Sequence record: OQ555404.1
From: Escherichia phage vB_EcoP_HC-25922
Length of the DNA stretch: 64,000 nt
Strand: one strand, 5' to 3'
A program made the position numbers and the translations under genes. Under the pieces are notes generated by a model, which made no database searches, was not told the DNA's origin, and saw nothing but the letters and a program-made list of their open reading frames with translations. The stretch's first letter is position 1. Every line of letters begins with the position of its first letter. Below, one piece after another: positions 131 through 64,000 of this stretch.

Positions 131-340
131 GCAGGTAGGGCAAGGCTTAGAGCTTAAAGGCTGATTGATTTCCTAAAGGCAATTGCATCGGTAATAACCC
201 TTTTTTAAATGAGGACTCCCCCTTTTTAGGAAACGCGCTCGGAGAGGCTAGGTCCATCCGGTCAAATCAGAATTTTAAACTCTTATATATAACTATATAC
301 CCCAACGTTAGTTGTGGATTTAAGATTAAGGAACAACTTT

Positions 341-505
341 ATGTGGAAATTGAAGATGATTATCAGGCAGATTAAATGTAATCACGAGTACTACCCAATC
401 CGGATATCGAGAGGTGATGAACGGTTACATGCTTATTACAAGAGTACATGGAGGTGTGCAGATTGTGGTAAGGTTAAGAATAGTAAATGGGTGGATAGAC
501 TATAG
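341..505 (+). CDS. small Cys-rich (zinc-ribbon-like) protein
   Basis: ORF with AAGGA RBS about 9 nt upstream of ATG 341; cysteine pairs CNHEY...CADCGK; the longer GTG 314 start lacks an RBS. Confidence 0.35.
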   Translation: MWKLKMIIRQIKCNHEYYPIRISRGDERLHAYYKSTWRCADCGKVKNSKWVDRL

Positions 506-965: not shown

Positions 966-1614
966 CAATATGACAGGAACTACTACACTGAATGCAATCT
1001 ATGAGAACATGGGATGTAAAGGCGAGGTTGTTTACAATGGCAATCTCCGTCCTTTATCAGAGGACATTTTCTATCTGAATCGTGTTCATGAAACTACTGG
1101 AGGTAAATCCCGAGTTGAGATGGTAAAACAACTGGCTCATGGTTCTGTGTACGGTTATGCTCCTTCAACCCGTGAAATATGGGAAGGTTTGATTCCTCGT
1201 ACAGAAGCTAAAGATGTGAAAGACTATTTCACTGTAGCAAAAGAAGTTAAACGTAAGTGTCCATCCAATTTAGAAGTTGTTCCGTATGTAGCTGACAAAC
1301 ATGCACACCTACCGGACTATGCCCGTGAGATGATTGAGATGATTGAAGAAGCCGAGTATGAAGCTCTGAATAATTATTTAAATTCAAAAGATCAATGGTC
1401 ACGTAATGTAGTAATTGATGAAGAAGGTAATGAAGTAGTTACGTGGGTACATGCTAGTGAACAAGCTCTGGACCCCGAGCTTGAAGAATACAAAAAATTT
1501 TTGGCGTCCTCTTCTTTTGAGGTAGAGAATGACAAATCTATTCCAGTTGGCTGGGAAGGTGAAACTGTAGCTCTCCAGACTTTGTTCAACCTACACGTAG
1601 GTGATGTAGATTAA
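955..1614 (+). CDS. hypothetical protein
   Basis: 219-aa ORF with GGAGAG RBS, followed by a hairpin terminator. Confidence 0.5.
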   Translation: MMNNNMTGTTTLNAIYENMGCKGEVVYNGNLRPLSEDIFYLNRVHETTGGKSRVEMVKQLAHGSVYGYAPSTREIWEGLIPRTEAKDVKDYFTVAKEVKRKCPSNLEVVPYVADKHAHLPDYAREMIEMIEEAEYEALNNYLNSKDQWSRNVVIDEEGNEVVTWVHASEQALDPELEEYKKFLASSSFEVENDKSIPVGWEGETVALQTLFNLHVGDVD

Positions 1615-1625
1615 TAAAAGGCGTT

Positions 1626-1652
1626 GCCTCCTCTCGTGGGAGGCTTTTTGTT
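1626..1652 (+). terminator. intrinsic terminator (GCCTCC hairpin plus T5)
   Basis: Stem gcctcc/ggaggc with short loop followed by ttttt directly after the stop at 1614. Confidence 0.55.
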
Positions 1653-1679
1653 ATAACGATAATGTAGAAGGAGTATAAG

Positions 1680-2147
1680 ATGTTTGGAGAAAAAGGAGAA
1701 CTCACGCCTGCACAGGTAGCTGAGATTACAGGAAGACTGCCCGGAGTAACGGAAGAACTTGAATCCAAGGGCATGGAACCAAGCACAGGGAAGTTCACTA
1801 AAGGTAATAAATTTGGACGTCCCAAAGGTAGTAGAGGTAAATTGACACAGCTCATGCTCGATCGTGTTGCTGCTAGTCATCTGTCTCCCGATGAAGTGTT
1901 GATTCAGATTTATGAAGATCCAAGTATTCCACCCGATCTTAGATTCAAGGCTGCAAGTAAAGTCGCTGATCTGGTATATCCTAAGGCAGCTTCTGTTGAG
2001 GTTAAGATTGAGGAAGAGAATGTAATCAATGAAGAATCACTGAACGCACAGATTCGAGACTTCTTGACTGGTGCACTGAAAGTGGATGTGCTACCTCCAG
2101 AGGACTCTGAGGACGCTGAAAAGGAGGAGGAAGCGGACGAGAGTTAA
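1680..2147 (+). CDS. hypothetical protein, possible terminase small subunit
   Basis: 155-aa ORF with GAAGGAG RBS; basic GRPKGSRGK segment and acidic C-terminus; sits immediately upstream of the large terminase. Position-based inference only. Confidence 0.3.
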   Translation: MFGEKGELTPAQVAEITGRLPGVTEELESKGMEPSTGKFTKGNKFGRPKGSRGKLTQLMLDRVAASHLSPDEVLIQIYEDPSIPPDLRFKAASKVADLVYPKAASVEVKIEEENVINEESLNAQIRDFLTGALKVDVLPPEDSEDAEKEEEADES

Positions 2148-2201
2148 TAGGAATAGAGGGGAGGGTTCTTTTCGCGAGGGATCTCTCCCTTTTTTATTTT
2201 A

Positions 2202-3756
2202 TTGGAGGAATATATGTCATTAGATAAAGAGATTTACGAAGCTCTAACTGGAGATAAATTGAGTGTAGAGGAAAAGAAAGCTTTGCTCAATATGTTAAAA
2301 GAAAGGGACCAGTGGAGAAAATATAATAAGATGTTAGCTTTTAAAGCTTACGACTTTCAGAAGAAATTCTATGCAGCAGGGTTGAAGCATCGCTTCCGAT
2401 TCCTGTGTGCAGCTAACCGCGTTGGTAAATCTTACAGCGAGGCATACGAGTTTGCTTGTCATGTCACAGGTCGCTATCCAACTTGGTGGACAGGTTACAG
2501 ATTTAATCGACCCATATTGGCTTGGGCGGTAGGGATTACAGGGGACTCTACAAGAAAGGTATTGCAAAAGGAATTGTTTGGAACACCTATCGGAAAGGAT
2601 ATGAATCTAATAGGAACAGGTGTTATTCCTCGTGATGCTATCGTATTGGACACGATAGAACGAGATGGGAACAAATTACAGATTGTACAAATTAAGCATC
2701 AAAACGCGAGAGGCGAGTTTGACGGTTTAAGTACATTAGAGTTCCGTTCTACCCAACAGGGTGAACATACATTGATGGGTGCTACAGTTGATTATATTTG
2801 GCTGGACGAAGAAGATCCATATGAATCTATGGCAATCTTCTCTCAGTGCGTAACACGTACACTTACAACTAAAGGTTTAGTTACTATTACAGCTACACCA
2901 GAGAACGGTTTAACAGAGCTGGTGGATAAGTTTATGAAAGGTGAAGGAGATGAGAACACAGGTTCTCTGTATTTCCAGAATGCTTCTTGGTGGGATGCTC
3001 ATGTAGATTTAGGTGGACATATCACTGACCAAGATATTAAAGACATGACTGAAGGTATTCCAACATGGCAGTTAGAGATGCGTTCAAAAGGTATGCCGTT
3101 GCTTGGTTCTGGTTTGATTTATGATGTATCAGATGACATGATTAAGTGTGATCCCTTTGAGATACCTGATACGTGGAAACGTGTTTGTGCTATTGATATT
3201 GGTATTGATCACCCGACAGCCGCTGTTTGGACAGCATATGATGCTAACACTGATACGATTTATGTTTATGACTGCTATAAAGAAGGTGGGTTTACTCCGG
3301 TGTACCATGCACCAGCTATTAATGGTCGTGGTCAGTGGATTCCAGTTATTCTTCCTCACGATGCCGATAATATTGAGAAGGGAAGTGGTTCGTCTGTTGC
3401 TCAATTCTATAAGAATGCAGGGGTTAATGTACAGAGTGATAACCTTCTACAACAAGATTGGAATGGATGGTAAGAAGAACTTCTTTGTAGAGCCGGGAAT
3501 TACTGATATTCGTGAACGTATGATGTCAGGTCGTTTTAAAATCTTTAACATTGCTTCGTGTGCTAAACTCTTTGAAGAGAAAGCTCGCTATCACCGTAAG
3601 GTTGGCAAGATTGTTAAGGAACATGATGACTTGATGGATGCTATGCGATATTCAGCTTGTTCTGTAACACATCGTGGACGTAGTAAGCATGATGCTAGTT
3701 ATGGTAGTTCATCGCTTTATCAAGACAATATTAACAGATGGAATCAGACCTACTAA
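2202..3756 (+). CDS. terminase large subunit; reading frame switches to +1 near 3470
   Basis: Walker A-like AANRVGKS, nuclease-domain motifs CAIDIGIDHPTAAVW and PHDA in frame 0 (2202..3473), then the C-terminal KEHDDLMDAMRY motif only in the +1 frame (to 3756). Confidence 0.75.
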
Positions 3757-3761
3757 AAATA

Positions 3762-3785
3762 GGGGAGGCTTTGTCCTCCCTTTAG
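3762..3785 (+). terminator. hairpin, possible terminator
   Basis: gggagg-ctttgt-cctccc stem-loop followed by ttt. Confidence 0.4.
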
Positions 3786-3821
3786 TAGTTCCTTCCAAGC
3801 TATCACCGAGGGAGAGATTAG

Positions 3822-6065
3822 ATGGCTAAGAAGAAATTTAGTGAAGATGTTTTGGATGAATTACGCGTTGACCTTCAACGTCGATTCAATTATGCTCAAG
3901 GTTATGTAGACTTAGCTGTAAAAGGCTATGCTCGTGAGGCTTGGGAATACTTCTATGGGAACCTTCCTGCTCCAGTTACTGCTGGTAGCTCTAGTTGGGT
4001 AGACCGTACGGTATGGGAATCAGTGAATGGTACGCTCCAAGATATCATTAATGTGTTCTGTTCTGGTGACGAAGCGGTAACTTTCGTAGCCGATAACCAA
4101 GAAGATAGTGATGCTGCTGACGTAGCCACTAAACTTGTCAACCAAATTTTGTTACGTGATAATCCGGGATACAATATTATCTCTTCAGCGGCACAAGAGT
4201 GTCTGGTTACACGTAACTCTTTTATTAAATATTATTGGGATGAACAAACTTCTACCCAAACAGAAGAAGCAGAGGGTGTTCCTCCGGAAGCTTTGGCTGC
4301 ATATGTCCAAGGTTTAGAAGCTGGTGGGCTTCAAGATTTAGAAATCTTTACCACTGACAACGAAGATGGTACAGTGGATGTTAAAGTAACTTACAAACAA
4401 ACAGTAAAACGCGTTAAAGTAGAATATGTTCCTTCAGAACAGATTTTTGTTGACGAACATGCTACCTCTTTTGCAGATGCTCAGTATTTCTGTCATCGCA
4501 CACGTAAATCTAAAGAAGATCTGGTTGCTATGGGCTTCCCTAAAGATGAAATTGAAGCTTTTAATGACTGGACTGATACAATGGACACCACTCAATCTAC
4601 TGTTGCATGGTCACGTACTGACTGGCGTCAGGATATAGATTCAGATATCGGTGTAGACACTGATGATATCGCTTCTATGGTTTGGGTTTACGAGCATTAC
4701 ATCCGTACTGGTGTACTGGATAAGAATAAAGAAGCAAAACTCTATCAAGTTATTCAAGCAGGTGAGCATATTCTCAGTTGTGAAGAAGTAACTAGCATTC
4801 CTTTTGTAACATTCTGCCCTTATCCTATTCCGGGTTCATTCTATGGACAATCTGTTTATGATATCACCAAAGATATTCAGGATTTGCGTACCGCTTTGGT
4901 TCGTGGTTATATCGATAACGTAAACAATGCTAACTATGGTCGTTATAAGGCTCTTGTAGGTGCTTATGACCGTCGTTCTCTACTGGATAACCGTCCGGGT
5001 GGTGTAGTAGAAATGGAGCGTCAGGATGCGATTGATCTCTTCCCTTACCACAATCTACCTCAGGGTATTGATGGCTTACTAGGAATGTCAGATGAGTTGA
5101 AAGAGACTCGTACTGGTGTTACTAAGCTTGGTATGGGCATTAACCCTGATGTGTTTAAGAATGATAACGCATATGCAACTGTTGGATTGATGATGAATGC
5201 TGCTCAGAACCGTCTCCGTATGGTCTGTCGTAACATTGCTCACAACGGTATGGTTGAATTGATGCGTGGTATTTATAATTTAGTCCGAGAAAATGGTGAG
5301 GTTCCTTTACAAGTACAAACCCCTCGTGGTATGGTTCAGGTTCATCCTAAACAACTGCCTGCTCGTCACAATCTACAAGTTGTTGTAGCTATCTCTCCTA
5401 GCGAGAAATCAGAACGTGCCCAGAAACTAATCAGCCTGAAGCAATTGATTGCTGCTGATGCTCAGTTAGCACCTCTGTTTACTCTGGAGCAAGATCGTTA
5501 CATGACTGCACAGATCTTCGAGTTGATGGGAATTAAAGATACTCACAAATACTTAATGCCTCTGGAACAATATCAACCGCCAGAACCTTCTCCGATGGAA
5601 ATCCTCCAGCTTGAGATGACTAAAGCACAGGTTGAGAACGTACAGGCTTCTTCTCAGAAGATGATTGCTGATGCATTCGACCAGCGTGAACGTACTACGT
5701 TTGAACAGCAGAAAGCTGCGGACGAGTTCAGCTTACGTCAAGAAGAACTGCAATTTAAGCAAGAGAATGCTGCTGATCAGATGACTTTGGAGAATCGTAA
5801 AGAAGACAACAGTGCTACACTTGAACAGGCTAAGCACAAGTTGGCTCTGCTCCAGCAACAGGTCCGTCAGTATGAATCTGTACTTAAAGAATTGCAGATG
5901 ACTCTTAATCATCAGGTCGATGTTGAGAAAGTTGCAAATCAGGCTAAAATTCAAGATAAGACTTTGGAACTCCAAAAGAAAGAAGCAAATGAAACTAAGA
6001 AAGAACAGCAAAGTTCAATCAAAGATTCACGGATTCCTAACCGTCGTCTTGGTAGTAGAAAATAA
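3822..6065 (+). CDS. portal protein (putative)
   Basis: 747-aa ORF directly after the terminase with GAGGGAG RBS; size, position and charged coiled-coil C-terminus fit a portal. Confidence 0.55.
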   Translation: MAKKKFSEDVLDELRVDLQRRFNYAQGYVDLAVKGYAREAWEYFYGNLPAPVTAGSSSWVDRTVWESVNGTLQDIINVFCSGDEAVTFVADNQEDSDAADVATKLVNQILLRDNPGYNIISSAAQECLVTRNSFIKYYWDEQTSTQTEEAEGVPPEALAAYVQGLEAGGLQDLEIFTTDNEDGTVDVKVTYKQTVKRVKVEYVPSEQIFVDEHATSFADAQYFCHRTRKSKEDLVAMGFPKDEIEAFNDWTDTMDTTQSTVAWSRTDWRQDIDSDIGVDTDDIASMVWVYEHYIRTGVLDKNKEAKLYQVIQAGEHILSCEEVTSIPFVTFCPYPIPGSFYGQSVYDITKDIQDLRTALVRGYIDNVNNANYGRYKALVGAYDRRSLLDNRPGGVVEMERQDAIDLFPYHNLPQGIDGLLGMSDELKETRTGVTKLGMGINPDVFKNDNAYATVGLMMNAAQNRLRMVCRNIAHNGMVELMRGIYNLVRENGEVPLQVQTPRGMVQVHPKQLPARHNLQVVVAISPSEKSERAQKLISLKQLIAADAQLAPLFTLEQDRYMTAQIFELMGIKDTHKYLMPLEQYQPPEPSPMEILQLEMTKAQVENVQASSQKMIADAFDQRERTTFEQQKAADEFSLRQEELQFKQENAADQMTLENRKEDNSATLEQAKHKLALLQQQVRQYESVLKELQMTLNHQVDVEKVANQAKIQDKTLELQKKEANETKKEQQSSIKDSRIPNRRLGSRK

Positions 6066-45253: not shown

Positions 45254-45440
45254 TCATGCAGTCAACAGGTGGAGAAGGAAAGGAATGACAACAGAGAAGA
45301 CTACCAGAGCAATGCTGCCATGTTTAATGGGTTTAGCGTCATTCGGGTTCTCTTTAAGCATCTGTTTCTGAGCTACATAAACGATACCGCCAACAAAAAA
45401 TTGCCCATACAGACCATACGATTGCTGAAAACATACTCAT
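45254..45440 (-). pseudogene. family B paralog disrupted by a frameshift in a T6/A6 homopolymer
   Basis: ATG 45440 with AAGGA RBS; reads MSMFSAIVWSVWAIF then stops; one frame over continues VGGIVYVAQKQMLKENPNDAKPIKHGSIALVVF, paralogous to 45059..45244. Confidence 0.4.
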
Positions 45441-61692: not shown

Positions 61693-61702
61693 TTTTACCT
61701 CT

Positions 61703-63991: not shown

Positions 63992-64000
63992 GTAAAGGGT

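Follow-up and report, generated by a model that had tools for sequence, protein, structure and literature searches.

The large terminase gene terL of Escherichia phage vB_EcoP_HC-25922, a member of Suseptimavirus (Gordonclarkvirinae), is divided between two reading frames by one extra A. This record-specific base is probably a sequencing, consensus or assembly error, as comparison with related sequences suggests, and it is most likely absent from the DNA of the phage itself. All coordinates refer to the window, that is, the whole stretch of 64,000 nucleotides that was analysed.

Structure of the terL gene

The following features of terL are used below.

2214..3473, plus strand: 5' part of terL as deposited, 419 aa and TAA, identical to WEU69017.1 (exact match)
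3442..3756, plus strand: 3' part of terL in the +1 frame, with the remaining half of the nuclease domain and, in it, KEHDDLMDAMRY; lies in an ORF at 3148..3756 with a Terminase_6C match
2214..3756, plus strand: whole terL, 1543 nt in the record vs 1542 nt (513 codons and stop) in relatives
3440..3442, plus strand: terL lesion, T-A-A in the record vs G-A in relatives in the alignment with IME267, SU7 and E20-1

Frame 0 is open from TTG 2202 or ATG 2214 to the TAA at 3471-3473. Counted from the ATG, it encodes 419 aa ending in ...QSDNLLQQDWNGW (also written ...GVNVQSDNLLQQDWNGW). This product has the ATPase domain together with the first half of the nuclease domain, which is RNase H-like; both CAIDIGIDHP and PHDA are present in the product. 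The Walker A and B motifs of the ATPase, AANRVGKS and DYIWLDEED, are present in the terL translation. The +1 frame stays open between 3148 and 3756, with the translation ...FYNKIGMDGKKNFFVEPGI...KEHDDLMDAMRY...; from about 3442 it reads ...TFYNKIGMDGKKNFFVEPGITDIRERMMSGRFKIFN...KEHDDLMDAMRY.... In GenBank only 3463..3756 is annotated as the 3' CDS, starting at an internal ATG and encoding 97 aa (WEU69018.1, exact match). WEU69017.1 and WEU69018.1 are separate CDSs of vB_EcoP_HC-25922, both named 'terminase large subunit'.

The first ORF matches Pfam family Terminase_6N (E 1.3e-14), and the tail in the +1 frame matches the C-terminal end of Terminase_6C (E 3.6e-08). Thus this is not a chance pattern of ORFs but a single terminase gene extending over two frames. 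The ORFs and the Pfam matches agree with the sequence-only reading, which had assigned the ATPase, CAIDIGIDHP and PHDA to frame 0 and the C-terminal motif to a +1 frame open to 3756. As deposited, the acidic metal-binding motifs of the nuclease domain are not all in one polypeptide, the split being at residue 409. The truncated TerL would end in the peptide NAGVNVQSDNLLQQDWNGW.

The lesion was placed by alignment to IME267, SU7 and E20-1 and by tables of indels relative to IME267, UKE3 and SU7. The relatives have GAGACC where the record has GATAACC, that is, a G>T substitution at 3440 and one extra A at 3441/3442 (in wider context, GTGAGACCTTC in relatives vs GTGATAACCTTC in the record). The substitution changes GAG to GAT (Glu409>Asp), and the +1 shift of frame comes from the extra A. 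The last 104 codons are thereby pushed into the +1 frame, and hence the gene was annotated as pieces of 419 and 97 aa. The frames share 30 nt (3442-3470). The switch of frames had been put near the TAA at 3471 in a range starting at 3440; this starting coordinate proved exact, but the shift takes place ten codons (29-31 nt) upstream of the TAA at 3471-3473 and not at the stop codon.

Distribution of the extra base among relatives

The closest counterparts are the TerL proteins of the Suseptimavirus phages IME267, SU7 and 101114UKE3 (QYC96883.1, QWY14122.1 and QZI79139.1; 513 aa), whose genes have about 99% nucleotide identity to terL of the record. The gene order is also the same in all four: hypothetical genes, terL, portal. 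In IME267 and SU7, a single terL CDS of 1542 nt (513 aa) is annotated, followed by the portal gene. Unlike these phages, the record has the extra A at 3441/3442 together with G>T at 3440, and its terL ORF is in two pieces.

A megablast search of 50,697 phage records with the region 2202-3760 produced 97 matching records. All of them are podoviruses of E. coli or Shigella from the Gordonclarkvirinae (Suseptimavirus and Kuravirus), with identity up to 99.0%. In the alignments with the closest relatives (H1-H5, H7-H9, H11-H14), 1559 query bases correspond to 1558 subject bases. A sensitive blastn search with 3400-3480, again matching 97 records, gave 80 nt vs 81 in the record in all matches listed; identity among these matches does not exceed 97.5%, which equals one gap and one mismatch. 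An indel was among the explanations offered by the sequence-only reading, and it is borne out by the continuous 513-aa ORF of the relatives, one base shorter than the record. The same comparison had been named there as a check, with a continuous ORF speaking against a programmed frameshift, and a continuous ORF is what the relatives have.

Environmental sequences were scanned with the pattern AATGTACAGAGTGA-N{1,2}-ACCTTCTACAA, which accepts either form. One contig of IMG/VR and five metagenome contigs matched, and all six have the short, in-frame form; the GTDB genome collection contains no match to either form. The metagenomic relative L015 (about 85% identical) reads GATACC, with Asp409 and an intact frame. 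Thus the substitution by itself is a tolerated polymorphism; what is aberrant is the extra A alone. An exact-protein lookup of both pieces returned a single NCBI record and no second copy of the variant, and no contigs encoding the 419-aa product are on record. A search for a publication on HC-25922, from which the sequencing platform could be learned, found none.

At larger distances, tblastn with the repaired protein matched 408 records with identities between about 99% and about 30%, including P22-like phages (at about 32%) and LUZ24-like phages. At least 80% of the protein is covered in one place in 400 of the 408 records. In 59 of the 60 rows listed, the match is a single piece reaching residue 479 or beyond, that is, past the break at residue 409. 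The possibility that TerL naturally ends at ...WNGW is ruled out: the relatives encode 513 aa and WNGW is off-frame sequence. Homologues with such an end had been suggested as a possible finding, and the tblastn matches listed contain none.

The repaired protein

Deletion of one A yields a terL ORF of 513 codons. The repaired TerL differs from those of IME267, UKE3 and SU7 by two residues, I18V and E409D, and the other differing codons (13-21) are all synonymous. The 314 nt 3' of the lesion contain no differences from these three phages (100% identity). Decay of a pseudogene is ruled out, as this downstream segment is unchanged and there is one residue change away from the lesion.

The repaired TerL contains Terminase_6N at residues 66-258 (E 1e-14) and Terminase_6C at residues 326-482 (E 1.4e-14). 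It also aligns with the nuclease domain of P22 gp2 (4DKW) over residues 297-480 (E 2.7e-31), across the break. Thus the RNase H-like fold is interrupted midway, since both the Terminase_6C span and the alignment with 4DKW extend across residue 409. The repaired protein resembles the P22 nuclease, whereas the deposited form is cut at residue 409.

In SPP1 G2P (His400 and Asp403) and T4 gp17 (Asp542), the C-terminal His/Asp metal-binding residues are essential for the nuclease (PMC2685612). The tail in the +1 frame carries the C-terminal His/Asp motif, the counterpart of these residues.

The terL gene of vB_EcoP_HC-25922 is an ordinary 513-codon large terminase gene of the P22 gp2 type. The extra A at 3441/3442, beside the GAG>GAT substitution, most likely arose by an error of base calling, consensus building or assembly, and the phage itself most likely makes normal full-length TerL. 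The wild-type-like peptide expected over the lesion site in this case is NAGVNVQSDTFYNK.

Recoding and a two-chain enzyme

The overlap of the two frames, 30 nt long, suggests another possibility, namely a programmed +1 frameshift producing full-length TerL, either at the TAA (TGG-TAA-G) or at CUU-CUA-C (3444-3450). This is highly improbable. Known +1 shift sites are CUU-UGA-C in prfB of E. coli and CUU-AGG-C in the yeast element Ty1. The terL overlap is like them in having CUU followed by a slowly decoded codon, here the rare leucine codon CUA, and the resemblance is a loose one. A shift at this site would give a 513-aa TerL with ...SDNLYNK... (...QSDNLYNKIGMDG...), three residues off the relatives, and a junction peptide NAGVNVQSDNLYNK. 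However, unlike the sites of prfB and Ty1, the motif in terL is not conserved: it was created by the insertion itself and occurs in no relative. The two-frame layout is found in none of the six environmental contigs and in no related phage record listed (97 matched). There is no GGAGG-like or other Shine-Dalgarno-like stimulator upstream of any candidate site, and RNA structure gives no support either, as the fold of 3425-3560 has z = +0.71, with 155 of 200 shuffled sequences folding at least as well. No slippery site was found near the terL break.

The site at the stop codon, which the sequence-only reading had proposed for a programmed shift, is ruled out by pairing rules, since tRNA-Trp, once paired with UGG, cannot pair again with GGU. 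The proposal fails on other grounds as well: the arrangement is not conserved, it has no stimulator, and the actual shift is 30 nt upstream.

A variant of the same idea accepts the extra A as real: the phage would stay viable because peptidyl-tRNA-Leu slips by +1 from CUU to UUC at 3444-3450 while CUA waits in the A site. This, too, is very doubtful.

TerL could also be a natural enzyme of two polypeptides, with the 419-aa and 97-aa pieces made separately and then assembled. The GenBank label 'terminase large subunit' on both pieces agrees with this, and interrupted terL genes do exist in some relatives, but there the interruption is a group I intron at another place. On the other hand, the break is mid-fold and not at a domain boundary, and the 97-aa piece lacks residues 409-416. 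The ATG at 3463 has no recognisable Shine-Dalgarno box, unlike the starts of terL and portal, and no relative among the matches listed has this arrangement. The existence of a two-chain TerL is thus extremely improbable. Splitting by an intron or intein is ruled out for the record, as the region of the break differs from the relatives by 1 nt only.

A second insertion and the quality of the record

One more insertion of the same kind was found in the window.

45395..45400, minus strand: second insertion of an A (A5>A6 on the plus strand), breaking a conserved 59-aa ORF (45254..45434)

The hypothetical 59-aa ORF has homologues in IME267 (QYC96939.1), UKE3 and SU7. The A5>A6 change is absent from these three phages and from the other full-length matches listed, which have 220 nt vs 221 in the record. 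After removal of one A, the ORF product is identical to that of UKE3 at 59 of 59 positions. Probably, the insertion at 45395-45400 is another indel error of this record.

When 91 CDSs of IME267 were mapped onto the 64-kb window, four were flagged. Two of the four are in divergent or replaced regions. Breaks by single-base indels within conserved sequence affect only two of the 91 CDSs, terL and the 59-aa ORF. Both breaks consist of one A added beside an A or several As, and both are private to the record. A generally noisy, frameshift-rich assembly is ruled out by the same count; apart from these two breaks, the assembly looks clean in the window.

An alternative to an error is a real and very recent mutation in the sequenced stock, truncating TerL inside the nuclease domain. 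The genome would then be defective, or it would be maintained, either by rare spontaneous +1 shifts in 3442-3470 or because wild-type siblings complement it. The lesion does not have the most typical signature of an error: it is not in a long homopolymer (A to AA) and is joined to an adjacent substitution. Taken as a compact G>TA change, it could just as well have arisen by one real mutation. The window elsewhere is largely free of frame-breaking indels, and the perfect identity downstream suits an artefact and a very recent event equally. However, TerL is essential for a propagated phage isolate, and the catalytic residues are in the missing segment; thus a null allele should not be the consensus of such an isolate. 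Further, the variant occurs in no independent assembly, and the second private insertion of an A that breaks an ORF points to a technical cause. Two such insertions in one record, one of them in an essential gene, fit technical indel errors better than two real mutations. A real mutation is therefore unlikely.

Several other differences from the relatives were seen in the window. Single-base deletions are located at 61693, 62953 and 63393, directly upstream of start codons on the minus strand. They fall in T-rich spacers between the ribosome-binding site and ATG, are intergenic, and do not break any frame. These deletions could be either real variation of spacer length or further miscalls in homopolymers. 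Compared with IME267, UKE3 and SU7, the window has two insertions of 20 nt and several of smaller size near its left end, at 498-600. The region consists of related GG..CCTTAA and ATGGGTATG-like motifs and overlaps a small ORF of IME267 (285..449); no repeat was called at 498-600 by Tandem Repeats Finder. The source record, of which the window is the first 64,000 nucleotides, is 70,042 bp long vs 75.7-76.6 kb in the closest relatives, and window position 64,000 corresponds to position 64,758 of IME267. Thus about 5-6 kb may be missing at the right end, or there may be deletions in that part.

Interrupted terL and polymerase genes in related phages

In the record of Escherichia phage E20-1 (OP293233), terL is also annotated in several pieces named 'terminase large subunit', and it is 97-98% identical to intact relatives. 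However, it contains two in-frame stops and odd substitutions (for example HDDLMD>HDVLMD) at other positions, and not a frameshift. The three 'terminase large subunit' CDSs at 1513-3054 (L003) are in one continuous frame, and portal, too, has been given the label terminase. The stops and unusual substitutions suggest that E20-1 is an error-rich record.

Genuine interruptions of terL were observed in the Kuravirus-like contigs L010, L011 and L012, with a mechanism and a site different from those of the break in the record. These contigs contain an insert of about 750 nt in terL directly after the Walker B motif DYIWLD, at residue 198; in L010 (Logan SRR20950716_2081, 74 kb) the insert site is at 3598-4325. 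Within the insert of L010, a group I intron is recognised by Rfam model RF00028 at 3628-3845 (70.2 bits, E 1.4e-17). The insert also contains an ORF of 148 aa with a weak HNH match (E 0.0084, below the Pfam cutoff). Exon 2 restarts at EEDPYES, and the 198-aa product of exon 1 of the interrupted gene is encoded in at least 24 contigs. No group I intron insert was found in terL of vB_EcoP_HC-25922, either at residue 198 or at the break.

The DNA polymerase gene of SU7 is in pieces around an ORF encoding a homing endonuclease (SU7_49/50/51; L008 39150-40000 / L009 1-1601). The gene is continuous in IME267 and in the window of vB_EcoP_HC-25922. The split in SU7 is a further sign of the traffic of mobile elements in essential genes of the subfamily.

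Implications

If the extra base were real, terL of vB_EcoP_HC-25922 would be a rare essential phage gene kept working by leaky frameshifting, and for this there is no support here. The split terL is ordinary, and it matters mostly for quality control and correction of annotation. The record should hold one terL CDS of 513 codons, or a frameshift flag, instead of two proteins. The truncated WEU69017.1 and WEU69018.1 enter protein databases, where they can distort the phylogeny of terminases and the prediction of packaging type.
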